A stretch of DNA of 64,000 nt from Candidatus Latescibacterota bacterium (GTDB lineage: Bacteria; Latescibacterota; UBA2968; UBA8231): NCBI GenBank assembly GCA_965217585.1, contig OZ244561.1, positions 3,328,001-3,392,000 of the forward strand, written 5' to 3'. The first letter of the stretch is position 1. The number at the start of each line of letters is the position of its first letter. Positions 18,578-40,770 of this stretch are shown here, piece after piece. The position numbers were made by a program, and so were the translations under genes. Below the pieces are notes generated by a model. It was not told the origin of the DNA. It searched no databases and saw only the letters and a program-made list of their open reading frames with translations.

Positions 18578-19838
18578 CAGGGCAATCGCACCAAAAATTG
18601 AGATTTGTCATAGGGTTATGTTATATTTTCTGTGTCTTTTTCGATAGCGCTGGTGCGCTGCTTCTCTCCCCTTCTCTTGGAACGTTTCCCCATGGCACCT
18701 TCGGCTGATTCACTGATTGAACATTTTTCCCAGGTACCCGATCCCCGTATCGAGCGCAGCCAAAGGCATCGTCTCATCGATATTGTGGTCATTGCCGTGT
18801 GTGGCGCGATCTGCGGGGCCGACAACTGGGTGCATATCGCTGAGTTTGGGCGATCCAAATACGACTGGCTAAAAACCTTTCTGGCGTTGCCCAATGGCAT
18901 TCCTTCCCATGACACCTTCGGCCGCGTCTTCGCCCGGATCTCGCCCGAGCATTTCCAGGACTGTTTCAGTGCTTGGGTCCAATCCCTCCTCCCCAAGCTT
19001 GAGGAAGAGATTGTGCCTATTGATGGCAAAACGTTGCGCCACTCTTATGACCGAACCTCGGGTAAAGCAGCCGTACATATGGTCAATGCCTGGGCGGTGA
19101 AAAACCGACTGGTGTTAGGCCAGTTCCACTGTGAAGGCGGTCTGGACGAGATCACCCTCATTCCCGAACTGCTGCGTGTGCTGGCGCTCAAAGGCTGCAT
19201 CGTCACCGTCGATGCCATCGGCTGCCACAAAAGCGTGGCCGAACAGGTCATCGACCGGCAAGGCGACTACGTACTGGCCGTCAAGGCTAATCAGCCCAAG
19301 CTGTTGCATCATCTGCGTCAGGTCTTCGACCGAGGGGAGCCTCAACTGCATCAGGATCTATCGGTCGACATGTTTGAGACCTACGATGAAAACCACGGCC
19401 GCATTGAGACCCGCCGGTACTGGACCACCGATCAGGTCGACGCTTTTGCCGATGGGACCGCTTGGAAGGGCTTAGGCTTGTTCGGTATGGTTGAAGCCCA
19501 GCGACAGGTAGGCGATCAAGTCTCCGTGGAACGACGCTACTATATCTCCAGCCTGGACAACGATGCCCAGCGGTTTGGTGAAGCGGTGCGTAGTCATTGG
19601 AGCATTGAAAATTCCTTGCACTGGATACTGGATGTGGTCTTCCGTGAAGATGACTCACGGGTACGCACCGGCCATGCCCCGGAAAATATGGCCCTCCTGC
19701 GACAGATTGCCGTGAGTCTGCTCCAGCAAGAGAAGACGGCCAAGGTCGGCGTCCAGACCAAACGGCTCAAGGCCGGATGGGATAACACCTATTTGGCTAA
19801 AGTATTGTCCGCTGGGCACTTTTGATGCGATTGCCCTG
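18578..19838 (+). mobile_element. ISAs1-family IS, complete
   Basis: Terminal IRs CAGGGCAATCGCA/TGCGATTGCCCTG; 9-bp target duplication GGACTATTC (18569-77, 19839-47). Confidence 0.95.
18692..19825 (+). CDS. ISAs1 (H-repeat) transposase
   Basis: DPR, GIPSHDTFGRVF, IDGKTLR, HWSIENSLHWILDVVFREDDSR. Confidence 0.95.
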   Translation: MAPSADSLIEHFSQVPDPRIERSQRHRLIDIVVIAVCGAICGADNWVHIAEFGRSKYDWLKTFLALPNGIPSHDTFGRVFARISPEHFQDCFSAWVQSLLPKLEEEIVPIDGKTLRHSYDRTSGKAAVHMVNAWAVKNRLVLGQFHCEGGLDEITLIPELLRVLALKGCIVTVDAIGCHKSVAEQVIDRQGDYVLAVKANQPKLLHHLRQVFDRGEPQLHQDLSVDMFETYDENHGRIETRRYWTTDQVDAFADGTAWKGLGLFGMVEAQRQVGDQVSVERRYYISSLDNDAQRFGEAVRSHWSIENSLHWILDVVFREDDSRVRTGHAPENMALLRQIAVSLLQQEKTAKVGVQTKRLKAGWDNTYLAKVLSAGHF

Positions 19839-19997: not shown

Positions 19998-22008
19998 ATG
20001 TCCACAATCGAACAAAGTCTTGAATTACTCACCTTGAAGAAGGTTTTCGCTGAGGGGGAAAGGTCATTTATAATTCCTGACTATCAACGCGGATACTCTT
20101 GGGAGCAGGACCAACGCAAGGACTTACTCAAGGATATAGAATATGGAATGAGCGGTGACTACAGCCACTATACTGGCACATTGGTTGCAGTCAAAAAATG
20201 CTCAATCCGAGATAATGATCGCTTCGAAATAGTAGATGGCCAACAGCGACTGACAACTCTGATAATCCTCTTGTCCTGCATCGCTCATGCCTTTAAACGA
20301 ATGAACACTGCGGTACCAGAGGATTTGAGGCGTTGCTTTATTGAAGAAGGGAGCGAGCGAGGATCAACCCTTCGCAATTCACCTTATCAGATGATCAGGA
20401 TTCCCTTTTCTGGCAGAAGGTCAACGAGCCCGACGCCAGTGGAACAGTTGAAAACAAGGGGGATCAAAACATTGTTGACGCATTTGACCAGTTTAAGAGA
20501 TGGTTAGAACTTGAAAATGAAACATCCCTTTATGAAATCTATGAATATGTTACGAGTAGCCTCGGATTCCTAATGTATGCCCCTGATGACACTAAAGAAA
20601 TAGGCATCATGTTCGAAGTTATCAATAACCGAGGTAAACCACTGAGTGAATTGGAAAAAGTTAAAAACCATCTTATGTATTATTCGGAAAAGAATGACAT
20701 TCAGGATTTAAAAACGGTCGTGAAGGACAAGTGGTCAAATATATTATTGAGGACTGCATAGCTAAAGGAATACGGTCTGGGACGAAGCAAGAGTGAGACG
20801 CCATTCCATTAGAAATGCAGAGATCAATAAGACACCTTAATGGCTGTAATCACACATCCAACGATGACGAAAATGGATTCCTCCGCAACTGCTGGATCGT
20901 ATTTCAGGACACTAATAAAAGCAAAAGCTTCTATGTATATGATAACCTGAAAGACCAGTTCCCCACCATCGAGGTCAACAATTGGGAGCGTCTCAGGGAG
21001 TTCGTCGCATTCCTCGAAGAATCAGCGCATACTTATCGGAAGCTTTATACAAGAGAAGATGTAACACATCAAGAAGAAAATGAATGCCTGACTCGTCTTG
21101 GAAATCAACCTGTATTGGCATCAGTGTTACCATTGATTCTTGTAATACTTAACCGCGAGACTGAAACCTCTACTAGAGTGACTTTATTGCAACTGATTGA
21201 AAAACTCAACTTTCGATTCTATGGGACAGGCATTGCCTCCCGGACTGATTCCGGACAGGGGGAACTTTTTGATTTGGCTCACAATTTCTATAACCATCAC
21301 TCAAAAACTCGTGAAGATGGTGTATTGGTCAATGCATCATGGCTTGAAGAAAATTTACGCAAATTTGTGGCAGATAATGCCAATGATCAAAAACTGATCA
21401 AACATCTGACATTGGATAAAGATGAATCAGGAGACTACTATTCTTGGTCATGGCTGAAATATTTTCTAGCAAGTTATGAGGGGCAATTGGAACGCAATGT
21501 GAAGCGTTCTGAAACATTAGGGAGAAAACTGGCTAAGAGAGACCCCCAAAATCCCAATGACTTTTATCATCTAGAACACATTTGGGCGGTTGGCGATTAT
21601 GAAAAAATTGATGATACATATAATCGTGACATAAATAAAAGGCGTCTTGGAAATTTTATATTGCTCAGAGAATCTCGAAACATAAGTATTTCAAACAAAC
21701 CACCTGAGGAAAAAGTTGAGGAATACCTTGAAAATTTAAAAGACACTCCAGATACATTGATGATTCGAGAATTGAAAGATTTATTCGATAAAGCGAGAGA
21801 AGAGATAGACAACAGACGAAGGAATAAGACATGGAGATATTGGTACGAAGTCTATGAAAGATTTCTCGATCTACACGAGGGAAAATACGTGAATTTTGCG
21901 CTAGATAGATGGCGGGTTGACGGTATTATTAAACCAGTGAAAGAGGTTGCTCTTAACAGTCTCTCAGACAGAAATGAAATTTATGAACTGAAATACGAAA
22001 ATATCTAG
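19998..22008 (+). pseudogene. GmrSD-like DUF262-DUF1524 restriction protein, split by a 1-bp frameshift (~20375) and an 81-bp insertion
   Basis: IPDYQRGYSW, VDGQQRLTT, FEVINNRGKPL, LEHIW, LGNFILL...N; AT-rich; the three ORFs join into one when both lesions are removed. Confidence 0.88.
20747..20827. mobile_element. 81-bp MITE-like element with TA target duplication
   Basis: Imperfect terminal IR (TTGAGGACTGCATAGCTAAAGGAAT / ATTCCATTAGAAATGCAGAGATCAA), TA on both sides; excision restores NILRHL in frame. Confidence 0.8.
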
Positions 22009-22226
22009 GATTGACCCTGATAGGTGCCGACGGGTAACCAAGCTGTACTGGGAGCTTTGTCGAAGAATCTGCAAACGATCTTCTCGGCTAACCTTTGCCT
22101 GTGCTTAGTGTCTTGACAAAGAACCTCAAAAGGATCCTTATTTTATCTATACTTTCGGTTGCGACGCCAGCGCTAGACAGGCGACTTGGTTAAGCAGCCC
22201 GCAACCAATAATAGTTAGGGGAGAGC

Positions 22227-25200
22227 GTGGCGGTTAAGGCCATCTTCGTCGGCATCAATCAACACCAGCATGCCGAGATTCCGGAGCTGAACGGTGCCCG
22301 GCGTGACGCGACGGCGTTGTGGGCATTGTTTACTGATACTATTGAAGAATTAGCGGCGAGACTGCTGGTTGATGAAGATGCGACCTATGTCGGGGTCTCG
22401 GACGCCATTCTTGGGATCCTGTCAACAGCGGAACACGATGACGTAATCGTTATCAGTTTCGCAGGTCATGGCTCACCAGACGGCAGTCTGGTGCTGTTCG
22501 ATACCGATGTGGCCGATCTCTCGGGCACAGCCCTGCCGATGGCAAAGTTGGCCGACGCGTTTAAGGCGACCAAAGCCCGTGCGGTTCTATGCATTCTTGA
22601 TTGCTGTTTCAGTGGCCAGGCCCCGGCACGTGTGCTTGAAACCGCATCAGTTCCGCGAAACGCCCTTGCGCTCGCGGACATCTACGGGGAGGGACGCATT
22701 CTGCTCGCGGCATGCGCCCCCAGTGAATCAGCGTGGGAACAGCCAGGCACCGGCCATGGGCTACTCACCTATGCCGCAATAGAAGCCCTAACCAAGGCTG
22801 AGGGAGAGTCGGTGAGCTTTCCCGAGATCGCCGGCGAGATCATCCAGTTGACACGCACCGAGGCGGATCGGATCGGTGTGACCCAAACGCCGGTCTTCTT
22901 GGGAAGCGTGCAAGGCGGCCTGACCTTTCCCGTGCTCAAGCGCGGCGACAACTTCGCTGCGGCGTTTCCCGCGGTCGCGATCCACAAGATGACGGGAACA
23001 TTTGCGGAGTTCGCAAACCACGGGCTTCCCCCGGAAATCGTCGAGCAGTGGACGGCAAATTTTCCGCAGGGGCTCAACGAACTGCAACTCACAGCGGTCA
23101 ACGAGCACGGAGTACTCGAAGGCAAGTCATTGCTCGTCGTCGCACCGACAAGCTCAGGCAAGACGTTGATCGGCGAGTTGGCCGCGGTCCAGGCGGTCAC
23201 GGCCGGAAAGAAAGCGGCTTTCCTCTTGCCGTACCGCGCGTTAGTCAACGAGAAGTTCGATGATTTTAGCCAGCGTTACGGCCCGGCAGGGGTGAGGGTT
23301 GCCCGGTGCAGCGGCGACGCGACGGATGGTATCGGTCCGGTGCTATGCGGTCGCTACGATCTCGGCTTCTTCACATACGAGACCTTCCTCAACTTAGCGC
23401 TCGGCTCGCCACGCCTGCTGAACCAATTGGGCTTGGTGGTGCTCGACGAGGGGCAATTCATCACCGATCCGCATCGCGGAATCACCGTGGAGCTTATCCT
23501 CGCGCTGCTGCTAAGGGCGCGCCAGCAGGGTATCCAACCCCAACTCATGGTGTTATCAGCCGTCATCGGCAACCTCAACAACTTTGATCACTGGCTCGCC
23601 TTGCCAGTGCTGAGGTCGCACAAGCGGCCCGTACCGTTGATCGAAGGCGTGCTGGATCGCTGGGGCAAGTTCCAATTTGTCGATGTGGACGGCGCGACGA
23701 AGACGGAGGAGTTGCTGCCGACACACCAAATCGTGCAACGCCGAGACGAGCCGAGTTCGCAGGACGTGATCGTGCCGTTGGCGAAGCACTTGGTCGCGAA
23801 TGGAGAGAAGTTGCTAATCTTCCGCAACATGCGGGGCACCACCCAGGGGTGCGCCCGGTATTTGTCAAAAGAGCTGGGGCTCGGTCCCGCTACCGTAGTT
23901 ATCGACGATCTACCGAACCAGGATTTGACGGGAGCCTCGCAAAACTTACGCGAGTGCCTGCTCGGCGGAACGGCGTTTCACAACACGAATCTCTTGCGCG
24001 CTGAGCGTGAAGCGATTGAAAAGGGCTTCCGCAACTCTGCTGGTGGGATTCACGCCTTGGCCGCCACCACGACCTTGGCTGCCGGCATCAATACGCCTTC
24101 ATCCACCGTAGTCCTCGCGGAAAACGAGTTCGTGGGGGAGGACGGGCGTCCCTTCACTATCGCAGAGTACAAGAACATGGCCGGACGTGCCGGGCGCCTT
24201 GGCTACAACGAAATCGGCAAGGCCATTATCCTCGCCGATACGCCGTTCGAGCGAGCCCAGCTTTTCCACAAATATGTGTTGGGAACGCCAGAACCTGTCG
24301 CCTCATCGTTCCAGCAGAGCGATCTTCCGACCTGGACACTACGTCTGCTGAGCCAGGTGCGTCGCGTGCAGACTAGCGAAATTCCTAGCCTCTTAGTTAA
24401 CACGTTCGGTGGATACTCGGCCTCTCGGTCCAATCCCCAGTGGGTCCGGTTGGTAAAGGCCGAGGTGTCGGCGTTCGTCGCGCGGCTACTGAAGGCCGGA
24501 CTGGCGGAGCAAGAGGGCGACCTCATCTATTTGACCTTGCTCGGGCGGGCCTGCGGGTCTTCGTCGCTATCGTTCGAGTCGAGCCTGCGGCTGATCGAGC
24601 TAATGAAGGAATTGAACGCCGCACAAGCTCCTCCTGTTCACATGCTTGGATTCATCCAGGTTCTCGACGAGATGGACGCTATCTATACACCTGTGATGAA
24701 GAGGGGCCAGTCCGAGAGCGTTCGCGCGAGCGATGTGGCGCAGCGCTTCGGCCATCAAATGACTCAGATACTACAGCGTTACTGTCGGGATTACTTCGAG
24801 TACTATTCGCGATGCAAACGCGCGTCGCTTCTGTATGACTGGATTAAGGGTACGCCTGTCGAAGTCATTGAGAAGCAATTCTCAACAACGCCTTTCCAGG
24901 GAGCGATTGGCTACGGCAACATCATTGGCATTGCTGATGGTGCACGATTTCACCTTCGCTCCGCGCATCAGATCCTTTCGACCTTGTTCCCGGAAGAACA
25001 GGAGTTTCTTGCGGCGGTGGACGAATTACTGCTGCGACTTGAATTCGGATTACCTGTGGCCGCGATTCCCCTTACCGCCCTGCCCTTGGCATTAAGCAGG
25101 GGACAATACTTGGCCCTCTTTGCGGCAGGCTGCTCGACAGCCGATGAGGTGAACGAGCTTGAGATGGACACGCTCACCGAATGCGTCGGTGCAAATGTCG

Positions 25201-25232
25201 CGTCCTTACTTCGACCGGAGCAGCAAGATTAG
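22227..25232 (+). CDS. Caspase-like (C14) peptidase fused to Ski2-like SF2 helicase
   Basis: FVGIN, FAGHG, ILDCCFSG (His/Cys dyad); APTSSGKT, LDEGQ, SAVI, ATTTLAAGINTP, NMAGRAGR. Confidence 0.9.
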   Translation: MAVKAIFVGINQHQHAEIPELNGARRDATALWALFTDTIEELAARLLVDEDATYVGVSDAILGILSTAEHDDVIVISFAGHGSPDGSLVLFDTDVADLSGTALPMAKLADAFKATKARAVLCILDCCFSGQAPARVLETASVPRNALALADIYGEGRILLAACAPSESAWEQPGTGHGLLTYAAIEALTKAEGESVSFPEIAGEIIQLTRTEADRIGVTQTPVFLGSVQGGLTFPVLKRGDNFAAAFPAVAIHKMTGTFAEFANHGLPPEIVEQWTANFPQGLNELQLTAVNEHGVLEGKSLLVVAPTSSGKTLIGELAAVQAVTAGKKAAFLLPYRALVNEKFDDFSQRYGPAGVRVARCSGDATDGIGPVLCGRYDLGFFTYETFLNLALGSPRLLNQLGLVVLDEGQFITDPHRGITVELILALLLRARQQGIQPQLMVLSAVIGNLNNFDHWLALPVLRSHKRPVPLIEGVLDRWGKFQFVDVDGATKTEELLPTHQIVQRRDEPSSQDVIVPLAKHLVANGEKLLIFRNMRGTTQGCARYLSKELGLGPATVVIDDLPNQDLTGASQNLRECLLGGTAFHNTNLLRAEREAIEKGFRNSAGGIHALAATTTLAAGINTPSSTVVLAENEFVGEDGRPFTIAEYKNMAGRAGRLGYNEIGKAIILADTPFERAQLFHKYVLGTPEPVASSFQQSDLPTWTLRLLSQVRRVQTSEIPSLLVNTFGGYSASRSNPQWVRLVKAEVSAFVARLLKAGLAEQEGDLIYLTLLGRACGSSSLSFESSLRLIELMKELNAAQAPPVHMLGFIQVLDEMDAIYTPVMKRGQSESVRASDVAQRFGHQMTQILQRYCRDYFEYYSRCKRASLLYDWIKGTPVEVIEKQFSTTPFQGAIGYGNIIGIADGARFHLRSAHQILSTLFPEEQEFLAAVDELLLRLEFGLPVAAIPLTALPLALSRGQYLALFAAGCSTADEVNELEMDTLTECVGANVASLLRPEQQD

Positions 25233-25406: not shown

Positions 25407-26275
25407 GAAGCTGTTGAGTTATTCAGATGCATTTAGCGACCGTACTCTTTATCATGGCAATACGAATCATGTTCTCTGCGGATTGGGTGAGGATTTCGAA
25501 GTCTTTCGCCAAGCGTCGAAATCCACCCAACCAAGCCAAGGTTCGTTCGATGATCCAGCGTTTGGGCACCACTTGGAACCCTTGGGTTGGTTTATCCGCT
25601 ATATCGAGTCGCAACCCCAACAGGTTTTCAACGAATTCAACGGTGGTACCGCGATAGCCTTGGTCGCCGCAGAAGGCTTCGACCGAATCATACTTTTCCG
25701 CGACCCGATCACATACGTCCCATCCTTGGCTGGTATCGGCCACATGGGCGGCATGTACTTGGATGGTCAGCATATTACCCAGCGTATCGGTGGCGAGGTG
25801 GCGTTTACGTCCTTTGATCTTTTTTCCCCCCATCCACGCCTCGATCCTGACTGGCATATTGGGTTTTAACCGATTGCGAATCGATCAAGGCATAGGTCGG
25901 ATGTTCGTTTTTGCCCTGCTTGTGACGGGCGCGCTCATTCAGCGCGTCCAAGGCTTGTTCCCACACGCCACGCTGATTCCAGCGTCGGTAATGGTCATAG
26001 ACGGTATCCCAAGGGGAAAATCAAGCGGCAGCATCCGCCACGGAATACCCCCTTTGACGACATATAAAATGGCATTGACCACCTCGCGTTTGGCATACTT
26101 GCCGGGGTTGCCCCGGGGATCAGGACGGTCGAAAAACCCCGCGATCAGGGCCCATTCTGGATCAGTCAAGTCACTTGGATACCCGCCCATACTAAAAGCC
26201 TCCCTGCGCAAAAAAGACAGCAAGCAATACATTATACATACAATACATACAGAGCTTTTTTAACTCAACAGCTTC
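25407..26275 (-). mobile_element. IS5-family (IS1031-like) IS
   Basis: Perfect 15-bp IR GAAGCTGTTGAGTTA/TAACTCAACAGCTTC flanked by TAA on both sides. Confidence 0.92.
25423..26190 (-). pseudogene. IS5-family transposase with frameshifts
   Basis: YPSDLTD.EW, WRMLPLDFP, GKKIKGRKRH, KRWIIERT; shifts at a C run (~26012) and at a G6A5 slippery site (~25820). Confidence 0.85.
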
Positions 26276-27972: not shown

Positions 27973-30627
27973 CTATCTCAGCAACAACATCCGCCGCACC
28001 TGCATCCCCTGCGGGCTGGACAGCCGAGACAAGTACACCCCGCTGGCCAATGCGGCCCCATTGTCGCTGCGTCCATCCCAGACGGTCTGGTAGCGACCCA
28101 CCTCCTGTACACCCTGCACCAGGGTGCGGATACGCTGCCCCCCGACATTGTAGATGGCCAATTCCACCGGCCCGGCCTCGGGTAGGGTATAGGCGATCTG
28201 GGTTTCGGAGTTGAAGGGATTCGGATAGTTCGCGTCCAGCCCGAAGGCCACCGGCTTGGACGCTGCACCGGTCACTGTCGCCGACAGACTGTTCGACAGG
28301 GCTTTGCCGCCCTTGGTGCAGACGGCACTGTCTGTCTCGCAATCGGTCGTTGGCGACAGCGCGATAGATATGTTTGCATTCGATGATGGCTTCACGGTGA
28401 TTTCCCAACTCATGTTGCTGGGCCTGTTTAGCCGCCGCGCCCTCTTCACGGTGCCCCCGGATACCTCCAGCACATCGTCGCGCACGTTCACATAGCTGAT
28501 CACGATCTCCTCACTGAAATGCAACTCAAAGGTGAACCGGCTTCCATCGTGCGTTGTGGGCATATTCTTAAAGCTCGCCGTCAGCGGCACTGCGTCTGCG
28601 TCGCTGATCGTGACCGCTTCCGTACCGATCGTTGCCCCGCCGTGCGTGGCCGCAACCGCGATCGTCTCGTCGCCTTCCTCGTCGGTATCAACCAACGCCG
28701 TCACCGTCGCCGATACCGAACTCTTTCTTGCGCGCAGTGTCAGCGACTCGGGCGACACCGTGAAGTCCGTGCCCTTTGTCGCCGCGCTCCCGGCGAAGTC
28801 GAGCGCGATCACCTGGTCCTCCGCGAAGGTGACGCCGTTGCTGATCTCGACCCGCACCGTCGTGGACTCGCCTTCTGCGACCTCGGCAGGATCCACCGAC
28901 AGCGCGAACTCCGCAACGTCGTTGTCCTCCATAACCACCTCTGCCGAGGCCGCCGCCGCCGACACCCTATAGCCTTCGCCATCCACCAGCGTTACAGTGA
29001 TGGTCAGGTCATCCCGCACCACCTGATCGTCATATTTCCTGAGGGTGGGCGTCTTGTTTCTCTTGCCGGCCTGGAACAGCACGGGAAGCTTCTGGACCGT
29101 TGAACGGTCGCTCAACGCCCAATTCGTCTGCACGGTCACTGCCTTTGTCGTCGGCCCCGTGCGCGACATCCTGAACTTTGCCGGCTCTCCTTCGGACACG
29201 GGACTCGCCACCGCAACGATCGAAACCACCGGAAGCTCGGAAATCGTCGCTGTCGCTGCGCTGGTCAATGTCTCTTGGTTGCCCGCGTCGTCGGTGAAGC
29301 TGACGCGGACCTTGATAGTTTTACCTGCATCGGCTTCTACAAGTGTGTAGGCCGCGTCGGTCGCGCCGGATATATTCGCGTCACTGGTTCCGTCGTTGGC
29401 AATCCACTGGTAGCTGAAGCTGGCGTTGTTCAGCCCGTCCTCGTCGGCAATGTTCGATACCGATGCCGTCAGCGTCTGTCCCACCTGTGTCGTACCACTG
29501 ATAGTGGGTGTGCCCGTCGCCGGGGTGTTGGGCTTGGGCTTCGTGATGTTGATAGCTACGTCCAACAGCGCACCTGTTGATGTGCCATTTGACGCATGTA
29601 TCGTCACCCGGTACACGTTGTCTCCGTTTGAGTCTGCCGGATTCTCGTAGTCGGGTGGCGTCTTAAAGGTGAGCACGCCGTCGCGGCTGATGGAAAAGTC
29701 GCGTTTGTCGTCTCCCAATAGTGTCCAAGTGACAGTGGTGCCTCCCGCGTCGGCTACCGAGTAGGTGGTCACCGCAGAGGTGCCGTCCTCCGCGTAGTTG
29801 ATCGAGGTGTTTCCAGACACTACGAGGGGAGGATCCTGGTCGTCCACGACTACTTTGATAAACGTCCAGTTAGCTTTGTTAGCGCCGACGATTTGATGCA
29901 ATACTGCCGCCCAGGCATCGATAGCGTCATTGTCGTCATAAGTGGATATCGTCACTGTTTGGGGGGCATCATAGTTGTCCGGAGTGAACGTCAATTGGGC
30001 GGGTGTCACCTGCACAATGGCATAGGGCATTACTTTTACCGTCACATTCTCCGACGGTTGCGAGGCAAGTTTAACGGTGTACGTTCCGCTGCTGCCTTCT
30101 GGTATCGTGATCTCACCTGGGGTCAATACCGCTCCATCAACTAAATTGGAGCCAGGAGACCCAGCGTTGTTCTGCACCGTCTGGGAGGAGAAGTAAGGAA
30201 CGGCGTTCCCGGCAGCGTCAACGAGAAGGCCGCCTGCGTTTCTGACGAATATGTTGTTGTAGGCGACTCGGACCTCATCTCCGGGCCCTGCATAATATGC
30301 CATCTGTAGCGTGAGGTCGGTGCCGGAAAGTGAGGCCCATTCGTGAGTATAGATCACACGCCCGTTGATGGACACATCGAAGGCCGCTCTCAAGAAGAGC
30401 TGAAGGGGAGCGCCAGACCATTCCTTGACGTATCTCACCAGTGGACTAATGAAGATCTCTTCGCTGAAAGTAATAGTGACATAACCACCGTCGGTACTTG
30501 CGCTCACAAATACTGGGCTAACAGTGTCGGCTTCTTGGCTAGTGACATCGGCCGGCCAAGCCGACAGCAGCAGGACGGCGCACAGGGCCAGTCCGAGTGG
30601 CGGGTAGCGATTTGCGGGTGTGTTCAT
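27973..30627 (-). CDS. Secreted multi-Ig surface protein (cadherin-like and Calx-beta-like modules, FlgD-Ig C-terminus)
   Basis: Signal peptide; PDYENPADSNGDNVY; NTPATGTPTISGT..VGQTLT; DTDEEGDETI; NYPNPFNSET...WDGR...SGVY. Confidence 0.82.
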   Translation of the reverse strand: MNTPANRYPPLGLALCAVLLLSAWPADVTSQEADTVSPVFVSASTDGGYVTITFSEEIFISPLVRYVKEWSGAPLQLFLRAAFDVSINGRVIYTHEWASLSGTDLTLQMAYYAGPGDEVRVAYNNIFVRNAGGLLVDAAGNAVPYFSSQTVQNNAGSPGSNLVDGAVLTPGEITIPEGSSGTYTVKLASQPSENVTVKVMPYAIVQVTPAQLTFTPDNYDAPQTVTISTYDDNDAIDAWAAVLHQIVGANKANWTFIKVVVDDQDPPLVVSGNTSINYAEDGTSAVTTYSVADAGGTTVTWTLLGDDKRDFSISRDGVLTFKTPPDYENPADSNGDNVYRVTIHASNGTSTGALLDVAINITKPKPNTPATGTPTISGTTQVGQTLTASVSNIADEDGLNNASFSYQWIANDGTSDANISGATDAAYTLVEADAGKTIKVRVSFTDDAGNQETLTSAATATISELPVVSIVAVASPVSEGEPAKFRMSRTGPTTKAVTVQTNWALSDRSTVQKLPVLFQAGKRNKTPTLRKYDDQVVRDDLTITVTLVDGEGYRVSAAAASAEVVMEDNDVAEFALSVDPAEVAEGESTTVRVEISNGVTFAEDQVIALDFAGSAATKGTDFTVSPESLTLRARKSSVSATVTALVDTDEEGDETIAVAATHGGATIGTEAVTISDADAVPLTASFKNMPTTHDGSRFTFELHFSEEIVISYVNVRDDVLEVSGGTVKRARRLNRPSNMSWEITVKPSSNANISIALSPTTDCETDSAVCTKGGKALSNSLSATVTGAASKPVAFGLDANYPNPFNSETQIAYTLPEAGPVELAIYNVGGQRIRTLVQGVQEVGRYQTVWDGRSDNGAALASGVYLSRLSSPQGMQVRRMLLLR

Positions 30628-31184
30628 TAGGTATCCTCCTGAGTTTGGTGTTCCCACCGGTGTTTAAGAAGCCTAGATCTCTTCTAGGCGATATGCTCTT
30701 TATAGTTGTGGCGACTCGGTTTGGGATCACAGGCCGCCGCAGTTTGGGTCCGGTCCCGCAGCATTCGGCCACGGCGGTGGATCGACGGCGGGGGGATCCA
30801 TTCAAACAACGACTAACTATACTTATGCGGATATGAGTTGCTTCTTTGACTGCACGGAGGAGCACACCAACCTTTTACTTCCTTCTGTTCTGACGCTCAA
30901 ATGGTCTCGTCCGTTGCGCGGGGATGTGATCTCGTTTTGGTATCAGACCCTATCTACAACAGTCAGCTATAGGGGTGGCCAGACAGAGAATCCGGATGCT
31001 GATAGGTTGGTGCGAGCTTTGGTCTTGGAGCTAGTTGGGAGGGAAGTGGGGCGAGAAATCTCCGGCGCAAGACCGGGGATACGAATTGCGGAGCTGGTAA
31101 CGAGATCAAGCCGAAGCGGGCCGGCGTTTGCAAGCGAGACGGAGGGCCCCAAGTTCTCCACTTTGCTTGCAAACGTTTTTAGGC

Positions 31185-31213: not shown

Positions 31214-31287
31214 TAGACGGATTGAAATTACTGGAGAAACCACCAATACAAAGGCCCCGGCGATGCGGCAACATCGGAGAGCGCACC

Positions 31288-32226
31288 ATGCAGCAGCATA
31301 TCTCCTTACAACCCGCCCTCGATCCCACCCCCACGCCCGTATCCATCGACGTGGCTCGATTGATGCAGGCCAGCATCGCACCCAACACGGCGAAGGCGTA
31401 CCACGCCGCCCTCGACAAGCTAGCCGGGCACTTGAACGAGCAACCGCTGACCGACGCGGCGCTGGCCGACTACTTAGCCCGCTTACATGCCGCAGGATTG
31501 GCCCCGGCCTCTGTCGCCATCGCGGTGCAAGCCGTCCGCTTTTGGGAAAAGCTAGAAGGCCACCCGTCGAGTGTCGGCCCGTTGACGACCCGCACCCTAG
31601 CCGGGATCCGCCGCCAAGGACGCGGTCGTGGCCGCGGCCAAGTAACCGGATTGACCCGCGAGACGGTCCAACGCATGGCCCATACCGCCGCCAAGACCAA
31701 CACCGTGGCCGGATTGAGAGACGCCGCCCTATTCCGCGTGATGAGCGACGCCCTGTTGCGGATCGGCGAGGCCGTCGCCATCGACTGCGAGCACATCACG
31801 ACCGAGGCCGACGGTAGCGGGAGACTTGCGATCCACCGCAGCAAGACCGACCAGGAGGGGAAAGGCGCGAGCCTCTATTTGACCGCCCGCACCGTCGAGG
31901 CGATCCGCCAGCTACAGGCCCGCGCTGGCTACACGGATGGCCCGCTCTTTCGCCGGATGTTGAAGGGCGACCGCATGAGCACTGATCGCTTGACGGTGGA
32001 CGGGGCGCGGCTAGCCATCAAAACGTCCGCCAAGCAGGCCGGTGTCGAGGGCGTAAGCGGCCACAGCCTCCGCATTGGCACCGCCCAAGAGCTAGCCCAA
32101 CGCGGTGCTACCTTGGTCGAGTTGCAGAACGCCGGCCGCTGGACCGACAGCCAGATGCCCGCCCACTACACCCGCCAGCAGGCCGCCGGCAAGGGAGCCG
32201 TAGCCCGTTTGCTAGGAGCGGACTAA
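31288..32226 (+). CDS. Tyrosine recombinase (Cre-like)
   Basis: RDAALF..MSDALLRIGE, RSKTDQEG, SGHSLRIG, AGRW, PAHY: catalytic R-K-H-R-W-Y set intact. Confidence 0.92.
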   Translation: MQQHISLQPALDPTPTPVSIDVARLMQASIAPNTAKAYHAALDKLAGHLNEQPLTDAALADYLARLHAAGLAPASVAIAVQAVRFWEKLEGHPSSVGPLTTRTLAGIRRQGRGRGRGQVTGLTRETVQRMAHTAAKTNTVAGLRDAALFRVMSDALLRIGEAVAIDCEHITTEADGSGRLAIHRSKTDQEGKGASLYLTARTVEAIRQLQARAGYTDGPLFRRMLKGDRMSTDRLTVDGARLAIKTSAKQAGVEGVSGHSLRIGTAQELAQRGATLVELQNAGRWTDSQMPAHYTRQQAAGKGAVARLLGAD

Positions 32227-32926: not shown

Positions 32927-34276
32927 TCAGGGCGCGACGACCCGCTTGAGTCGATCTTCGAAGTTGTCGCTCATCCTGTATATCCATTTACGCCCACCCG
33001 TGTACTTGACGATTAATCCCAGCCTGTCGAGAGCAAGGAGGTCGGTGCGTGCCGTCTCGTATGTGACGTTGTGGGATCGCCGGTGCCCATCTATGGTGTA
33101 CGAGGTGGCCGGGTGCTTCAGCATGTGCCCCAACAGGGCCACTTGGCGATGGTTTAGCACCAATGCCGCATCAGAACCGCGGAGCATGGCTTCCAGTCTG
33201 CTCGTCTCGCTGGTCTTGCGCGCCAAGTACGTATGCAAGAGGCGGATTGAGTCTAAGATCACCCGCAGGTTGTAGTCGAGAAAATACGTGACGTCGTTGT
33301 CGTCGATCTCGGAGAAGACGTATGCGCGAACGTACTGAGCGGGTGCCTTCTGAATAACCGACGAAATGGAGAGGAACTCGGTCAGCCAATACCCCGATCT
33401 CGCCATAGACCAGTAGAACAGTGCTCTTGCAGTCCGTCCATTTCCGTCTACAAACGGGTGGTCGTAGCCGACCATGAAGTGGAGGAGGATGGCTTTGACG
33501 ACCGGATGCAGGAATTGATCATCCTCGGTGCGTCCATTGGCGAAATCCAAGAGCAGTTCGATGCGGTCGCTGAGCTGACTGGCGTCCGGGGGCGTGTGAA
33601 CGACCTCGCCGTCGCGCTGGTCCACCACAGCGACCACGTCGGTCGGCCGCCGGAGCCGCCCGACTGCATCTGGATCGAGCGTCCCTTCCGTCAGTGTCCT
33701 TTGCAGGTCTATGAGCATGGGGACTGTCAGTTCTTCGTCGATGTTCTCGCGTAGAAACCCCATGCCTAGGTAGTTGTTGACGATCATCCGTTCGCTGTTG
33801 TCGCGTGGCGGGCGGCCTGATCTCAGCAGCTCCTTGGCAACCCGGCGGGTCGTGACGGCACCCTCTAGCTGGCTTGAGGTGATCGCCTCTTCGATCAGAG
33901 AGCTCATCAGATACCGTTCGCGGGAGCCGCTGTTGACCACGTCGCCGTGGGGAACCTCGATTCTCCCGCTCGCGTCCCGGTCCACCTGATGGAGCTGACG
34001 GTACAGGTTCCCCGTGTCGCTGAATGAGAACGGCCTGCCGCGAGTGTCCTTGAATGGCAACTCGTGCCGCGAAACCATGCGCTTGAACTTGACGGCAGTC
34101 CACCAGTCAAGGCTCGCAAACCCTTCCGGCGGGGGCAGGTGACGAAGCTGGTCCCAATGCAGGTACCTGTCCTTGGGCAGGCTGCCAATGTCCGACCTTA
34201 GCAACCTGACCAAGTCATTTGGTTCGTACGACGAGACCAACTCGTCGAAAGGCTTAGGGTTTTTGGGCATTCTCAT
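32927..34276 (-). CDS. Fic-domain protein with C-terminal wHTH
   Basis: SSQLEGA inhibitory motif, HPFVDGNGRTAR catalytic loop, TARTDLLAL..LGLI. Confidence 0.92.
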   Translation of the reverse strand: MRMPKNPKPFDELVSSYEPNDLVRLLRSDIGSLPKDRYLHWDQLRHLPPPEGFASLDWWTAVKFKRMVSRHELPFKDTRGRPFSFSDTGNLYRQLHQVDRDASGRIEVPHGDVVNSGSRERYLMSSLIEEAITSSQLEGAVTTRRVAKELLRSGRPPRDNSERMIVNNYLGMGFLRENIDEELTVPMLIDLQRTLTEGTLDPDAVGRLRRPTDVVAVVDQRDGEVVHTPPDASQLSDRIELLLDFANGRTEDDQFLHPVVKAILLHFMVGYDHPFVDGNGRTARALFYWSMARSGYWLTEFLSISSVIQKAPAQYVRAYVFSEIDDNDVTYFLDYNLRVILDSIRLLHTYLARKTSETSRLEAMLRGSDAALVLNHRQVALLGHMLKHPATSYTIDGHRRSHNVTYETARTDLLALDRLGLIVKYTGGRKWIYRMSDNFEDRLKRVVAP

Positions 34277-34641: not shown

Positions 34642-37212
34642 ATGGAAAGCATGGTGATGCAAAGGAAGGCAAACGTGGAAAACACGGAGCTTTGGAAACA
34701 AGGTTTCGGGGATGAGGGAAATAGCGAGAACGTAGCGCGGCTAGCGACCTCGCTCCGAAGCATCCGGAGGAACGCAGAGGCGCTAACGTCGAGAATAGCA
34801 GGCAGCTTGCCCGGACTGACGATTCACGACATATCCCACTTGGACGCGCTGTGGGAGGTTGCAAGTACTGTGGCGGGGTGTGACTTTCCGCTTAACCCCT
34901 TGGAGGCGTATGTCTTCGGCGCTTCCGTGCTGCTTCATGATGCTGGCCTCTGCTTCGAAGCGTACTCGGGAGGCCGAGCCGCTCTGCGCGACACGCTGGA
35001 GTGGCGTGACGCACACGGACGACTATCAAGGGGCGACGTACAAAACCTGGCGCAGGAGGCAGACTTCGAGGCCCTCAGGGCATTGCATGCATCGCAGGCG
35101 GCCCGGCTTGCGATCGTACCTTGGGTCGGGGAAGATGGAGAACTTTACCTCATCGACGACCGGGAGTTGCGTGAGAACTATGGCCAACTGATCGGCGATC
35201 TCGCGTCATCGCATCACTGGAATCTGGAACTGGTTGTGCAACGATTTTCAACACGGCGCCCGCCGGCCGCGTTCCTGGACGCTGACTGGGAGGTGGATTC
35301 CCTCAAAGTCGCGTGCATGCTTCGGGTTGCGGACGCGGGCCACATGGACGGCACTCGCGCGCCGTCCTTTCTCCTTAGAATCCTCCAGATGAACTCGCTC
35401 TCAAGAGCGCATTGGATGGCCCAAAACCGTCTCGGGAGACTAACAGTCAGACCCGATGATCCTGTGCAGTTAACGATCGCATCGACGAGCCCTTTCCCTC
35501 GGCACGAGGCGGCGGCTTGGTGGGTTGCCTTTGATCTGGTTGAGACCTTCGACAAGGAACTCCGTCAGTGCAACGACGTGCTTGATACTTCGCCGGGCGG
35601 GCCACGACCTACCTTCGCGGGAAAAAGGGTAGCCGGGGCAGGGCAAGTCAGAGAGCAGGTCAAGTACGTCGAAACGACAGGTTGGGAGCCTACGGATTCA
35701 ACCGTGCATGTGTCGGATGTTTCAGCGTTGGTGACCAAGCTGGGTGGGGAGCAGCTTTACGGGAAAGATGCTGATCGTCTCAATATTGCGTTGCGCGAAC
35801 TGATACAGAACGCCGCAGATGCGATCTGCGTGCGGCGGTCATTGGATAGCGGCGAGTTCGTAGGCCGCATCTTGGTCCGACTTAGAAGAGGGATGGACGG
35901 AGGATGGACTTTACAGGTGGACGACGACGGAGTGGGCATGTCGCAGGCGACGCTCACCACTGATTTGCTGGACTTCGGTCGGAGCTTTTGGGCAAGCGAA
36001 CGGGCAGCCCGGGAGTTTCCTGGAATCCATGCTTCGGGATACACGCCGATCGGCCGTTTCGGGATCGGATTCTTCTCGATCTTCATGGCTGCCAAAAAAG
36101 TCAATGTGTTCTCAAGACGGTTTGACAAGGGACTGGAGGACGCTAGGTGTCTGTCGTTCGACAACGGCATATCTCTTCGGCCCACTCTTAGCTACGACCG
36201 CCCGGATGATTTCGGAATGGATCTGTGCACAAGGGTAGAGTTGGAGCTGAAGCCGGATGTTGTGGAAAACCCTGATCAGATCAGGATACGGTGCAACGTC
36301 CAAGGACACGAGGAGTTCTCAGTGACGTTCGGGGACTACGTAGCCGCTATGGTTGCAGGTATCAACGTTCCGGTGGTGGTGGAGACCGCGAGTGGACGAC
36401 GGAGGGTGCACGAGGGATACCCTCCCGAACCTGAAAAACGGGAGGAATGGCTTGAGGCACTATCGTACGTCAACTCCGGAGTGAACGAAAGGGCGAAGGC
36501 AGGTCTGGCTCGGGCGATTCCCAGACTCAGAGAAATCCGGGATGGAGAGAAATGCTACGGTTTGGCAGCCATCGACGTATTGGGGCAGACAGGGGGCGCT
36601 TTTCTGTCCGGTAAAGCGGTCGGCGGTCTCGTAAATCCACATGGCCGCTATGACGATTCGTTCGTGGGCTTGATCGATCACGTTCCGACGACAGCGCGAC
36701 GGGATGCCGGTGAGATGGCAGCACCTCAGCACAGCATCGACACGTGGATGTCGGGGCAGATGGCTCTACTAAAAAAAGCGAATCTTTCGCAGATCGAGTC
36801 GATATTGGCTAGCTACTCGGTCTGTAGTTTAGGGTATGACCCGAAGGACGTTCTTCAAGGGCTCTTAGTAAATTCCCAAAGTCGAACAGCCTTCATGTCT
36901 ATACACGAGATTACGGACCATCTAAAGAGTGGCCTGCGGCTTGGATTTCTTCTGTCGCCTGCTATCGGCCATCACTTGGACCAGTTTTCGAATAGAGTAA
37001 GGATCTCTGGCATCTTGACCTGCGTTGTGATCACGAACGGGAAACTCAACGACGCGGCCATATCGGCTGGCGTTCCCGAAAACATGAACTCGCTCATCGG
37101 TGTTGTGCATCGAGTGCTGGTTGAGGCAGGTGAAAGTCCAAGATGGTCGATACAGGAAAAAGTCTATAGTAGTACGTTCGGTCAGGGGGACTTACTGGAG
37201 GTTTCAGTGTAG
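34642..37212 (+). CDS. HD-CE-like HD domain fused to HSP90/GHKL ATPase
   Basis: TIHD..H, LLHDAG, SHH, LRVAD; LRELIQNAADA, DDDGVGMS, GRFGIGFFS. Confidence 0.85.
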   Translation: MESMVMQRKANVENTELWKQGFGDEGNSENVARLATSLRSIRRNAEALTSRIAGSLPGLTIHDISHLDALWEVASTVAGCDFPLNPLEAYVFGASVLLHDAGLCFEAYSGGRAALRDTLEWRDAHGRLSRGDVQNLAQEADFEALRALHASQAARLAIVPWVGEDGELYLIDDRELRENYGQLIGDLASSHHWNLELVVQRFSTRRPPAAFLDADWEVDSLKVACMLRVADAGHMDGTRAPSFLLRILQMNSLSRAHWMAQNRLGRLTVRPDDPVQLTIASTSPFPRHEAAAWWVAFDLVETFDKELRQCNDVLDTSPGGPRPTFAGKRVAGAGQVREQVKYVETTGWEPTDSTVHVSDVSALVTKLGGEQLYGKDADRLNIALRELIQNAADAICVRRSLDSGEFVGRILVRLRRGMDGGWTLQVDDDGVGMSQATLTTDLLDFGRSFWASERAAREFPGIHASGYTPIGRFGIGFFSIFMAAKKVNVFSRRFDKGLEDARCLSFDNGISLRPTLSYDRPDDFGMDLCTRVELELKPDVVENPDQIRIRCNVQGHEEFSVTFGDYVAAMVAGINVPVVVETASGRRRVHEGYPPEPEKREEWLEALSYVNSGVNERAKAGLARAIPRLREIRDGEKCYGLAAIDVLGQTGGAFLSGKAVGGLVNPHGRYDDSFVGLIDHVPTTARRDAGEMAAPQHSIDTWMSGQMALLKKANLSQIESILASYSVCSLGYDPKDVLQGLLVNSQSRTAFMSIHEITDHLKSGLRLGFLLSPAIGHHLDQFSNRVRISGILTCVVITNGKLNDAAISAGVPENMNSLIGVVHRVLVEAGESPRWSIQEKVYSSTFGQGDLLEVSV

Positions 37213-38051: not shown

Positions 38052-38837
38052 ATGAAGGTACAGATGGACAAGGAATCCCAAGAACGAATGCGGCTGTTGG
38101 CCAAGATGGTAAGGCACGGTGCTACCCAAGTTGAGATAGACGACCTCTTTAAGCAATCGCAGATAATCTGGAGGATCGGAGCGGATCAAGAAATATCTCA
38201 TACTTGCGTTCACTTAGAGGAGTTCATGTCAAGCGCAGCGCGAAACTGCAAGAAGGCTCTCCGAGTGATAGCTCGCATGCACAATTCAGGCAAACGCAAA
38301 GACCCTGACCTTCTAACTGCGTTAAAGAAGTACGTTGAAGATACATGCGAAGCTATTAAGAAGGTCGATAGTACACTCGGTCGTAATAGGTCAAGCCTCA
38401 CATCCCTGATTTACGAAATTCCCAACAAGACGTCAGGGGATGACGTATCGTGGCGCAACCTGATAGCCCGACGTGACGTGATAGCACATAGGCTCCTGAC
38501 TGTTGACGACGAGAGGGTCTATCATGAGGCCGAGCGTGACTTCGGATCCTTGGACGAGTTATTGTCAAAGGCCTACTTTGTCCCCGTCAAGACCGACCTC
38601 GGCAAGGGTGAGGGCTTTTCTCCTTTGCTTAGAGCGGACGCCTTGAGAAACCTCGCCCCCTCCTTGCATGGTAGGACTCCTAACTTAGGCGAATCTCTCA
38701 TATTTGTCTGTGAGGACAAAGTAGATGGATTCTTGTCGTTCAGATTAGGACGCACAGACAGCAACAAGGTCCTGCTTTCTGCATCTGCACCACGCCGCAT
38801 AGATTTCTCTTTACACGGATTGCAAATCGAGAGTTAG
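38052..38837 (+). CDS. Hypothetical protein with HEPN (HepT/DUF86-like) RNase motif
   Basis: SWRNLIARRDVIAH..LTVDDERVY contains R-X4-H in a HepT-like context. Confidence 0.65.
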   Translation: MKVQMDKESQERMRLLAKMVRHGATQVEIDDLFKQSQIIWRIGADQEISHTCVHLEEFMSSAARNCKKALRVIARMHNSGKRKDPDLLTALKKYVEDTCEAIKKVDSTLGRNRSSLTSLIYEIPNKTSGDDVSWRNLIARRDVIAHRLLTVDDERVYHEAERDFGSLDELLSKAYFVPVKTDLGKGEGFSPLLRADALRNLAPSLHGRTPNLGESLIFVCEDKVDGFLSFRLGRTDSNKVLLSASAPRRIDFSLHGLQIES

Positions 38838-39088
38838 TTCCAAGGATGGGAAACGGTCCTTAGTGGCCACGGCCGTGGGCGCTGGCGGGATGCCGCTGAA
38901 AGCGTTGCCCCGACGTACTACGTTGATGGACACTCATTCATTAGTTGGTGTGCTTAACCATTCAAGGTGCCGAGCCAGGGCAATCGCATTATAAGTTGAT
39001 TTTTACCATGCGGTTATGTTCCTTTTTCCCTTTCTATGGAACTTAGGTTCCAGTCCTCCCTTTTCCCTATTGCTTGGAGTGTGTCTGC

Positions 39089-40233
39089 ATGTCCTCATCA
39101 TCCTTGGGGTTGCTGGATTATTTGGCCGATGTTCCCGACCCGCGTATTGAGCGTTGTCGGGCGCATCGCTTGATTGATATCCTTATGATTGCGGTGTGCG
39201 GCTCCATTTGTGGGGCCGACAACTGGGTGGCGATCGCCGAATTTGGCCGGGCTAAAGCCGACTGGCTTAAGACCTTTCTAGCCTTGCCTAACGGCATCCC
39301 CTCGCATGATACCTTCGGTCGCGTGTTTGCCCGTCTTTCGCCTTGGCATTTCCAAGACTGTTTTACCGCTTGGGTGCAATCGCTGACACTCCCGTTGGCC
39401 GACGAGGGCGAGATCGTGCCGCTGGATGGCAAGACGCTGCGCCGCTCCTACGATACGGGTTCGGGCCAAGCCGCCATCCACATGGTGCATGCTTGGGCGG
39501 TAAAAAATCGGCTGGTCTTGGGGCAATTCCATGGTGAAGAAGCCTTGGAAGAAATTGCGATCATTCCCGAGTTATTGCGCGTGTTAGATCTCAAAGGCTG
39601 CCTGGTCACCACCGATGCGTTGGGGTGTCATAAGAGCACGGCCGAGCAGGTCGTCGAACAAGAGGCTGACTATGTGCTGGCCGTCAAGGCCAATCAACCC
39701 AAACTCCACGCCCATCTCCAACAGCTCTTTGACCGCTCCGACTCGAAACACCACGCCGATCCTACCGTAGATTATTGGTTTACTCAAGACCAAAACCACG
39801 GACGTTGCGAAACGCGGCACTACTGGACTACGAACCAGATTGAGACCTTTGCCGGACATGCCCACTGGCCGGGTTTACGCCTGTTCGGTATGGTCGAGGC
39901 GATCCGGCAAAGCGGCGATACGGTCTCGGTCGAACGACGCTACTATATCTCCACGCTGGACAACAACGCCCAACGATTGGGACAGGCCGTGCGCGGTCAT
40001 TGGGCCATTGAAAATTCATTACACTGGATCCTCGATGTCGTCCCCGCGTACGCGGGGATCAGTCCCGCATACGCCGGGGGCATGGCCCCGAAAATATGGC
40101 CGTTATACGCCACATCGCGCTCAATCTACTCCAGCAAGACAAAACGACCAAAGCCGGCATGCAAACCAAGCGGCTCAAGGCCGGGTGGGACCACAAATAT
40201 CTGGCTAACCTGTTGGCACATGGACAGTTATAA
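39089..40233 (+). pseudogene. ISAs1 transposase frameshifted at ~40043
   Basis: Homologous to 18692 up to LHWILDVV; the remainder (DQSRIRRGHGPENMA...GWD) is in another frame. Confidence 0.85.
40037..40065. repeat. Solitary type I-E CRISPR-repeat-like palindrome
   Basis: GTCGTCCCCGCGTACGCGGGGATCAGTCC, 29 bp, single copy in the window. Confidence 0.55.
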
Positions 40234-40262
40234 TGCGATTGCCCTGGGTGCCGAGCTAGGTA

Positions 40263-40751: not shown

Positions 40752-40770
40752 GCCAACCGAGGAATATCCG

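Follow-up and report, generated by a model that had tools for sequence, protein, structure and literature searches.

What is a caspase-like protease doing at the N-terminus of a DNA-repair-type helicase? The question is raised by a gene in a Candidatus Latescibacterota genome (GenBank assembly GCA_965217585.1), situated in a 64,000-nucleotide (nt) stretch of contig OZ244561.1 (positions 3,328,001 to 3,392,000 of the forward strand) that is here called the window. The gene (22227..25232 of the window, + strand; 1001 amino acids (aa) plus stop) encodes both enzymes in a single polypeptide. The reading favored here, with a probability of about 0.6, is that the fusion is a self-contained, mobile, one-protein system for defense against phages or other mobile elements, in which the helicase acts as a DNA sensor controlling the protease. 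The genomic context of the gene supports a defense role well, and its function is probably defensive.

Architecture of the fusion protein

The gene was delineated from the open reading frame (ORF) list, the translation, family scans and a full-length AlphaFold2 model. The ORF is intact over its 1001 codons and begins with GTG, a start that coincides with the N-terminus of the homologs ('MA(V/I)KA(I/V)FVG') and is preceded by what reads as a purine-rich, Shine-Dalgarno-like AGGGGAGAG (22217..22225, +). A scan for sigma-70 promoters and terminators around the gene gave hits no better than chance. The translation contains FAGHG (His81), LDCC (Cys126-Cys127), APTSSGKT (Walker A, Lys312) and DEGQ (residues 407-410). 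The full-length model has a predicted local distance difference test score (pLDDT) of 91.7 and a predicted template modeling score (pTM) of 0.91, with pLDDT falling below 50 just in the loop at residues 129-147 and in the final three residues. No PADLOC, NCBIfam or Pfam model was found to cover the whole protein, in line with an initial annotation, made from the sequence alone, which had not recognized the fusion as a named system. Among the Foldseek matches, no solved structure spans both halves (query template modeling (TM) score at most 0.63).

The N-terminal part (residues 1-238; 22227..22940, +) is a protease of the caspase/metacaspase fold, as judged by structural alignment with VIA-align, the NCBIfam model NF047832 ('caspase, EACC1-associated type') and a sequence match to metacaspase-4. 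NF047832 matches residues 4-191 with E 1.7e-26 and 93 bits (cut-off 140 bits), and the PADLOC 'caspase' model PDLC02987 matches with E 1.6e-13. Pfam Peptidase_C14 (PF00656) gave no match on the protein at E 0.01, and is precomputed for many relatives that are 72-84% identical to it. An AlphaFold2 model of residues 1-265 (pLDDT 83.5) was aligned by VIA-align to the MALT1 paracaspase with Z 22.4 (root-mean-square deviation 3.4, 215 residues aligned), to Arabidopsis metacaspase-4 with Z 21.6, to bacterial GSU0716 with Z 21.0, and to caspases 9 and 8 with Z 20.8; the best Foldseek E for the domain is 4e-10, and sequence identity to the structural matches is 13-24%. A profile of 32 N-terminal domains also matches metacaspase-4 (E 1.2e-05) and T. 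brucei MCA2 on sequence, with the GHG of the fusion protease aligned to that of metacaspase-4. As modeled, the domain adopts the caspase-hemoglobinase fold and, by fold and catalytic dyad, belongs to the clan CD / C14 superfamily. It is nearest to the metacaspases and paracaspases, not to the animal caspases.

Conservation was assessed in an alignment of the fusion protein with 60 full-length cluster representatives (27-52% identity). His81 (codon at 22467..22469, +) is invariant in 61/61 full-length sequences and in 32/32 N-terminal domains, and Cys127, the second Cys of LD-C-C-FSG (codon at 22605..22607, +), is invariant in 61/61. Some relatives have Ser, Thr or Val in place of Cys126, which identifies Cys127 as the nucleophile. 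The initial annotation had described an intact His-Cys dyad in a caspase-like protease. The dyad is confirmed, and the caspase likeness holds for fold and dyad, with metacaspases and paracaspases as the nearest kin.

Also in the protease domain, D27 is invariant (61/61) and D125 is kept in 60/61. We take these residues to occupy the places of the metacaspase S1-pocket aspartates, an assignment modeled on MCA2 that fits the alignment with metacaspase-4 and MCA2 as a whole rather than residue by residue. Read as an S1 pocket, D27 and D125 lead to a predicted cleavage after Arg or Lys. Immediately following the catalytic Cys is a disordered loop (residues 129-147; 22611..22667, +), with pLDDT below 50 in both models, in which position 135 is Lys/Arg in 39/61 sequences and position 144 is Arg/Lys in 30/61. 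The segment following the catalytic Cys is the place of self-processing in caspases, and loop 129-147 is a candidate self-processing or regulatory loop. Co-prediction of two copies of the N-terminal domain scored 0.00, a result that carries no weight either way.

Residues 267-1001 form a complete five-domain Hel308-type superfamily 2 (SF2) helicase. The SF2 core, composed of RecA1 and RecA2 (approximately residues 267-690; 23025..24296, +), is matched by Pfam DEAD at 296-448 and Helicase_C at 585-659. It contains the Walker A GKT (residues 311-313; 23157..23165, +), in which G311 and K312 are invariant and T313 almost so, and motif II DEGQ (residues 407-410; 23445..23456, +), in which D407 and E408 are invariant and relatives have DExQ or DExH. 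The C-terminal domains (approximately residues 691-1001; 24297..25229, +), identified by profile, Pfam and Foldseek matches, comprise a winged helix, the ratchet domain 4 and the helix-hairpin-helix (HhH) domain 5. Pfam Helicase_dom4_arc matches residues 824-941 with 23.2 bits, slightly short of its 27-bit cut-off.

A profile of the 61 family sequences matches solved Hel308/Hjm structures (2p6r, 2zj2, 2va8) with E ~1e-121 over profile positions 275-1006, and additionally matches ASCC3, Brr2 and the Pol-theta helicase domain. By contrast, the HamB structure 8vx9 matches over the RecA core alone (302-673) with E 1.5e-54; the PADLOC HamB models likewise match mostly the RecA core, with E 4e-30 or weaker. 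Foldseek aligned the full-length model to whole Hel308 chains with E 1e-42 and a target TM score of 0.79-0.87. The helicase is thus Hel308-like more than HamB-like. Of the 'Ski2/HamB-like helicase' in the initial annotation, the Ski2-like SF2 superfamily, motif II and the Hel308-like C-terminus stand, and the likeness to HamB is mostly limited to the RecA core. Assignment to Hel308 proper was also rejected: the NCBIfam Hel308-type models span residues 267-993 (E 2.7e-85) and score far under their equivalog cut-offs (NF040935, 210.6 vs 1200 bits; NF002654, 287.2 vs 887 bits).

Conservation of both active sites

The two enzymes are joined by an ordered linker (residues 239-266; 22941..23024, +) with pLDDT 83-89 in the full-length model, in which G240 and L262 are almost invariant across the alignment. 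The pTM of 0.91 suggests that protease and helicase are held in a fixed arrangement. Nine residues spread over both halves are invariant in 61/61 sequences: D27, H81, C127, G311, K312, D407, E408 and the motif VI arginines R654 and R657. The invariance of both active sites implies purifying selection on both enzymes, and, from their sequences, protease and helicase both look active.

With two enzymes that look active, the roles could be the reverse of those favored here: the helicase would be the effector, stripping proteins from invading or aberrant DNA or unwinding replication intermediates, and the caspase a regulator that processes or inactivates its own polypeptide, for example in loop 129-147. 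The complete conserved Hel308 motor with its ratchet and HhH domains, the disordered and often basic loop directly after the catalytic Cys, and the fixed arrangement suggested by the model all speak for such a protein. However, the retention of a full protease site, with D27 and D125 (read as S1), among 61 diverse relatives goes beyond the usual needs of self-cleavage, and helicase-only relatives seem, from weak leads discussed below, to bear other terminal domains, a better fit to a swappable effector. We consider this reversal unlikely, and retain the reading in which the helicase is the sensor and the protease the effector.

Distribution and mobility

The fusion gene is horizontally mobile and patchily distributed, and is not a phage gene. 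A word-indexed search gave 1842 matches among 8000 candidates scored. The best 120 of these are 72-94% identical to the fusion and mostly ~1000 aa in length with 97-100% query coverage (one 884-aa protein covers 86%), and the named ones among them are annotated as 'DEAD/DEAH box helicase', 'helicase' or 'replicative superfamily II helicase'. The closest relatives come from Proteobacteria and are 80-90% identical. In an exhaustive search of 50%-identity representatives, the full architecture reaches down to ~28% identity and is carried by ~60 clusters. The 48 loci found in one-genome-per-species contigs include Alpha-, Beta- and Gammaproteobacteria, Acidobacteriota, Bacteroidota (Hymenobacter, Niastella), Scytonema (Cyanobacteria), a Nomurabacteria metagenome-assembled genome (MAG) of the Candidate Phyla Radiation, and Polyangiales. 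The family spans at least six phyla, and most of its loci are chromosomal islands.

In a tree built with FastTree from 39 full-length rows (ORFs below 950 aa excluded), 12 changes of class label are required, the minimum being 7. Near-identical fusion proteins occur in Pinirhizobacter (Gammaproteobacteria) and several Betaproteobacteria, and the tree partner of the window protein belongs to a Rhodobacterales MAG (80% identity). Full-length copies are present in 2/41 related genomes, the host genome counted, with 45% identity for the copy outside the host; the 40 host relatives also contain one 256-aa ORF matching the caspase domain alone and one caspase domain within a 1223-aa ORF. At least 80% of the fusion protein is matched in 15 plasmid records, and 64/129 matching plasmid records are predicted to be conjugative. 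No match in 50,697 phage records reaches 80% coverage of the protein, and the fusion lies on one viral contig among the 79 loci returned. With blastn, the gene had no match in 5426 E. coli genomes, a result that is uninformative for relatives at the protein level.

These patterns bear on two other explanations. In the first, the protein is a housekeeping helicase of the Hel308 kind, active in repair or replication restart, that has acquired a protease for turnover or regulation. Residues 267-1001 do indeed find their best matches, in structure as in sequence, in Hel308, Hjm and the Pol-theta helicase domain. Nonetheless, a housekeeping role is highly improbable given the scarcity of the gene among related genomes and the divergence of its second copy, the incongruent phylogeny, the carriage on plasmids, the defense-gene neighborhoods and a score of 287 bits against the 887-bit cut-off of the NCBIfam Hel308 equivalog.

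In the second, the fusion serves the mobile element that carries it, through competition between plasmids or integrative and conjugative elements, exclusion of rivals, or an addiction-type function. This would account for the plasmid records and their predicted conjugation, for the insertion sequence (IS) elements, integrases and resolvases that are frequent beside the fusion, and for the recent between-class transfer on the tree. But most of the loci are in chromosomal islands, and the fusion has anti-phage systems as neighbors, not genes for transfer or partition, making service to the carrier an improbable primary role. It moreover overlaps with the favored reading, as defense against plasmids is also defense.

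An obligate fusion without a conserved partner

The caspase-helicase fusion is obligate in its clade. Among 80 metagenome loci, 38 carry both halves, always in one frame, and in 30 of these 38 the caspase and helicase matches are exactly 76 nt apart, equal to 25 codons left between the queries. The remaining 42 loci are helicase-only; seven of them are cut by a contig end or have less than 739 nt upstream, and the other 35 (at most 35% identical) lack a caspase domain at E 1e-5 throughout the locus. No split form, with separate caspase and helicase genes, was found in these 35 loci.

There is also no conserved partner gene beside the fusion. Neighboring genes from 87 loci and the window (88 sources, 78 with the gene) were called crudely as longest ORFs of at least 60 aa, in a greedy manner, and clustered by BLASTP (E 1e-4, at least 50% coverage), a procedure that remote homology can escape. 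The commonest flanking cluster anywhere occurs in 7/88 sources, the commonest immediately upstream in 3/71, and the commonest immediately downstream in 6/76. The initial annotation had noted that no substrate gene is adjacent; in the window the flanks are a broken GmrSD gene and an IS5-family element, and beyond it no adjacent gene is conserved.

Many neighbors are defense genes. A scan of 135 genes (at least 100 aa) within two positions of the fusion in 45 loci and the window matched six PDC-S32/AbiJ_NTD4, five LmuB (one with E 8e-262), four AriA, four HEPN (Aga_HEPN/Hypoth_Ymh), three MkoA of Mokosh (E 1e-252), two QatA (E 0), two AbiEii of AbiE and two PtuA of Septu proteins, and further neighbors include MADS components, N6_Mtase, ResIII, a KAP NTPase, integrases and resolvases. 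The initial annotation had proposed a comparison of homologs with the same architecture, and such homologs turn out to be common and horizontally moving, to lie among known or candidate defense genes, and to share no conserved neighbor.

Over nearly its full length, the most recurrent downstream gene matches PADLOC PDC-S32 (AbiJ_NTD4; E 9e-45). Five loci (L001, L003, L004, L005 and L026) have it exactly 61 nt beyond the fusion, on the same strand, and a sixth (L007) has it at 42 nt; in four loci it is followed by a HEPN protein (Hypoth_Ymh/Aga_HEPN). The fusion may then be one part of a multi-gene system that has lost its partner here, perhaps through the IS5 element, leaving the local gene as a functionless orphan. 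The fixed 61-nt spacing, the HEPN gene next in line, the occupation of the downstream slot in the window by the IS5 element, and the frequency of modules that pair a protease with a latent effector in the systems described (PMC12642450, PMC12799240) all speak for a lost partner. Several observations make it rather unlikely. The PDC-S32-like and HEPN neighbors are confined to 6/76 loci, all in one subclade of proteins 76-80% identical to the window protein, and because these loci are so closely related the neighbors are best explained by shared descent of an island. In PADLOC, PDC-S32 has its own entry as a single-gene candidate, and searches of the window's genome with these queries gave no PDC-S32-like and no HEPN protein. 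Most loci, distant ones included, have unrelated neighbors, and the active sites are invariant also where the PDC-S32 and HEPN neighbors are absent. A fusion that is complete in itself is therefore preferred.

Other recurrent genes were observed locally. Two proteins of unknown family, ~365 aa and ~298 aa, are encoded upstream of the fusion with operon-like spacing (L001 7996-9992, L025 2654-4632, and others), the former in 7/88 sources and the latter in 3/88, among close relatives. Neither has a Pfam or PADLOC match, nor a match to a PDB sequence below E 0.89, and the nearest protein to the ~365-aa one in the window's genome is a 31% identical paralog ~380 kb away. Two distant metagenome loci (L161 and L163, 29-31% identical) have two small ORFs of ~190 and ~167 aa downstream on the same strand, which may be clade-specific partners.

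Neighboring helicase clades, 29-35% identical and represented by P0184 (1020 aa) and P0230-type proteins (850-970 aa), lack the caspase. The 246-aa N-terminal domain of P0184 was considered as a caspase and rejected (hhalign probability 0.3 to the caspase profile); it has a weak atlas lead (0.89) to a cluster with Guanylate_cyc in 63% of its members. The C-terminal extension of the P0230-type proteins (~150-220 aa) has weak atlas leads to FokI/Mrr-type clusters (0.78-0.83). If these leads are real, the helicase is possibly a chassis with swappable effectors, cyclase-like in P0184 and restriction-endonuclease-like in the P0230-type proteins.

Proposed mechanism

In the proposed mechanism, the C-terminal Hel308-type ATP-driven DNA translocase/helicase would be the sensor. 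In the manner of Hel308, it would load onto single-stranded 3' tails, forks and other intermediates of replication or recombination, which would be abundant during phage replication or genome damage. On engaging DNA and turning over ATP, the fusion protein would change its conformation or become locally concentrated, and this change would switch on the N-terminal metacaspase-like protease (His81/Cys127), whose cleavage site probably follows Arg or Lys; the disordered loop 129-147 may be a site of self-cleavage. The active protease would then cleave host or phage proteins in trans, and the infection would be stopped as the cell ceases to grow, dies or loses a factor required by the phage. We infer the defense function, the DNA trigger, the direction of control from helicase to protease, the substrate and the outcome; the interpretation offered by the initial annotation is partly supported, with nucleic-acid-triggered proteolysis as its conjectural part.

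A bolder version, which we put forward tentatively and regard as doubtful, is that of a one-polypeptide 'DNA-sensing death switch', in which a Hel308 motor that recognizes intermediates of phage replication or recombination directly licenses a metacaspase executioner and the helicase clade serves as a general sensor chassis. If true, the switch would need no adaptor, second messenger, oligomerizing NTPase or dedicated effector, and no shorter route leading from a nucleic-acid structure to caspase-type proteolysis would be known. If the fusion acts in defense in any form, it would provide a compact model for the conversion of helicase action on DNA into proteolysis for the substrates of an effector-less caspase, and for a possible role of Hel308-type helicases, otherwise of archaeal and eukaryotic repair, as immune sensors.

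Several points weigh against a self-contained defense function. The defense role is assigned through guilt by association: the neighbor counts are raw counts without a background control, and generic ATPase domains are among the PADLOC neighbor matches taken at E 1e-5. The helicase is far nearer to the DNA-repair enzymes Hel308 and Pol-theta than to the defense protein HamB, and alone would suggest repair. On the protease side, Peptidase_C14 and the NCBIfam caspase model are both under threshold on this protein. The recurrent neighbors in some loci imply that parts of the family could depend on a partner. Finally, the flanking IS elements and the decayed GmrSD gene imply an eroding island, in which the intact fusion gene may be unused.

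Genomic context in the window

The initial annotation placed the fusion inside a defense hotspot, with an IS downstream, and both descriptions hold. Upstream of the island is an IS transposase with DDE_Tnp_1_assoc and DDE_Tnp_1 domains (18632..19825, +; Pfam E 2.7e-36 and 5.5e-18), followed by a GmrSD-type (DUF262/DUF1524) type IV restriction gene recognized by Pfam and broken over three frames (19998..22008, +), which is not part of the fusion system. Its fragments correspond to GmrSD_N positions 1-78 at 19998-20507, GmrSD_N 169-199 at 20573-20761 and GmrSD_C at 20815-22008. With a GC content of 0.40 compared to ~0.58 around it, this gene looks like a recently acquired, already decayed defense gene. 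Downstream of the fusion is the IS5-family element (25423..26232, -; NF033580 E 3.9e-25), consisting of two ORFs with DUF4096 (25939-26232) and DDE_Tnp_1 (25423-25857).

Further downstream are an 894-aa protein in which a FlgD-Ig domain is accompanied by a weak C-terminal sorting signal for type IX secretion (27973-30657, -; Por_Secre_tail 25.9 bits, under cut-off), which hints at the kind of host, then an integrase (31222-32226) and a Fic protein (32927-34276, -). An 856-aa protein (34642-37212, +) combines HD-CE (E 1.3e-48) with a following GHKL-type ATPase (HATPase_c_3), a MORC/Tiamat-like combination that is possibly a further defense gene. It is followed by a HepT-like protein (38052-38837) and a second IS transposase with DDE_Tnp_1_assoc and DDE_Tnp_1 (39074-40279, +). 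The two transposases at 18632 and 39074 bracket ~20 kb, and a simple composite transposon was considered and rejected, as they are 71.5% identical at the protein level and give no blastn match. Beyond them lie a DUF6615 protein (40672-41649), a 'Beta protein' (PF14350, E 3.4e-80) adjoining an HTH_3 and Peptidase_M78 (ImmA/IrrE-like) regulator (42792-45147, -), and a DNA methylase (N6_N4_Mtase) near an Mrr-type restriction endonuclease (50797-53031, -, with the endonuclease at 52117-53031). The GC content of the methylase/Mrr stretch is low, at 0.447 (50001-52000). No tRNA genes were found within the 64-kb window.

Comparison with known systems

No functional study of a caspase-helicase defense protein was found in openly searchable full text. 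Surveys of cyanobacterial orthocaspases list DEAD and Helicase_C as rare accessory domains (3/473 proteins) and give them no function (PMC8283722 Table 1; PMC7475262). PDC-M23 gene B of PADLOC was rejected as an identity for the fusion (108 bits over two partial stretches, the better aligning 569-693 with 615-734 of 1060).

Each half has known counterparts. The helicase has the five-domain architecture and motifs of archaeal Hel308/Hjm and the Pol-theta helicase domain, but these are repair enzymes without a protease, whereas the fusion is an accessory mobile gene. The protease shares (S/A)GHG and D-x-C-x-SG with metacaspases, orthocaspases and the paracaspase (Arabidopsis MC4, T. brucei MCA2, GSU0716, MALT1). 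A caspase-like protease without an effector gene, from E. coli 27-18K, is described as protecting against T2, T4 and PhiV-1 unless Cys131 is mutated (PMC12642450). A standalone 321-aa 'caspase family protein', with GHG at 81-83, DCC at 130-132 and no helicase, occurs in E. coli and Salmonella, including 24/5426 E. coli genomes (DNA identity up to 98.9%), and is 30% identical to residues 4-191 of the fusion (E 2e-14). It may be the published Cys131 caspase, an unconfirmed guess from the residue number. In a Salmonella enterica subsp. houtenae record (L049 4995-5960) it adjoins a RES-domain gene and an integrase.

Membership in the EACC1-type caspase modules was rejected on the score of 93 vs 140 bits and the lack of a recurrent small upstream partner, in a comparison of neighbors not aimed at EACC1 itself; no metallo-beta-lactamase (MBL), alpha/beta-hydrolase, Pepco or EACC1 effectors appear among the top 25 Pfam families in the 135 neighbors. 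Caspase-family proteases also take part in phage defense in Canu (CanABC) and in the caspase-like arm of type IV Thoeris (PMC12799240). In the description given there, Canu has an Ig-like domain, the partner CanB and the pro-nuclease CanC, and, unlike the fusion, no helicase (PMC12799240). Type IV Thoeris, too, differs from the fusion in lacking a helicase. It is reportedly switched on by a TIR-made signal.

The closest parallel in logic is the protease-bearing Hachiman (HamM-HamA(trypsin)-HamB), together with the trypsin-MBL modules, in which, as in the fusion, a helicase of the Ski2/Hel308 superfamily accompanies a protease (PMC12799240; 10.1101/2025.09.03.673762). In trypsin-Hachiman, a nucleic-acid motor controls proteolysis, the same logic as that proposed for the fusion; protease, helicase and nuclease activities are all reported as required for defense (PMC12799240). 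The arrangements differ, however: trypsin-Hachiman has three genes, a trypsin-like protease on HamA and an MBL pro-nuclease as the substrate, while the fusion has a caspase on the helicase and no conserved substrate gene. Membership of the fusion in Hachiman was rejected, as HamA is not adjacent (the neighbors being the broken GmrSD gene and the IS5 element) and the helicase is nearer to Hel308; DUF1837 (HamA) is also absent from the 25 commonest Pfam families of the 135 neighbors elsewhere, the extent of the list consulted.

Protease-based immunity in bacteria is a prominent theme of these reports. In the immune proteases studied to date, as covered by them, a separate sensor (a STAND NTPase, a CRISPR complex, a TIR signal or HamAB) switches on the protease, which usually cuts an effector encoded next door (PMC12799240, PMC12642450). 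Sensor-controlled protease immunity is thus already known, and what the fusion would add is the direct joining of a DNA-repair-type helicase to a caspase-fold protease, without a partner gene.

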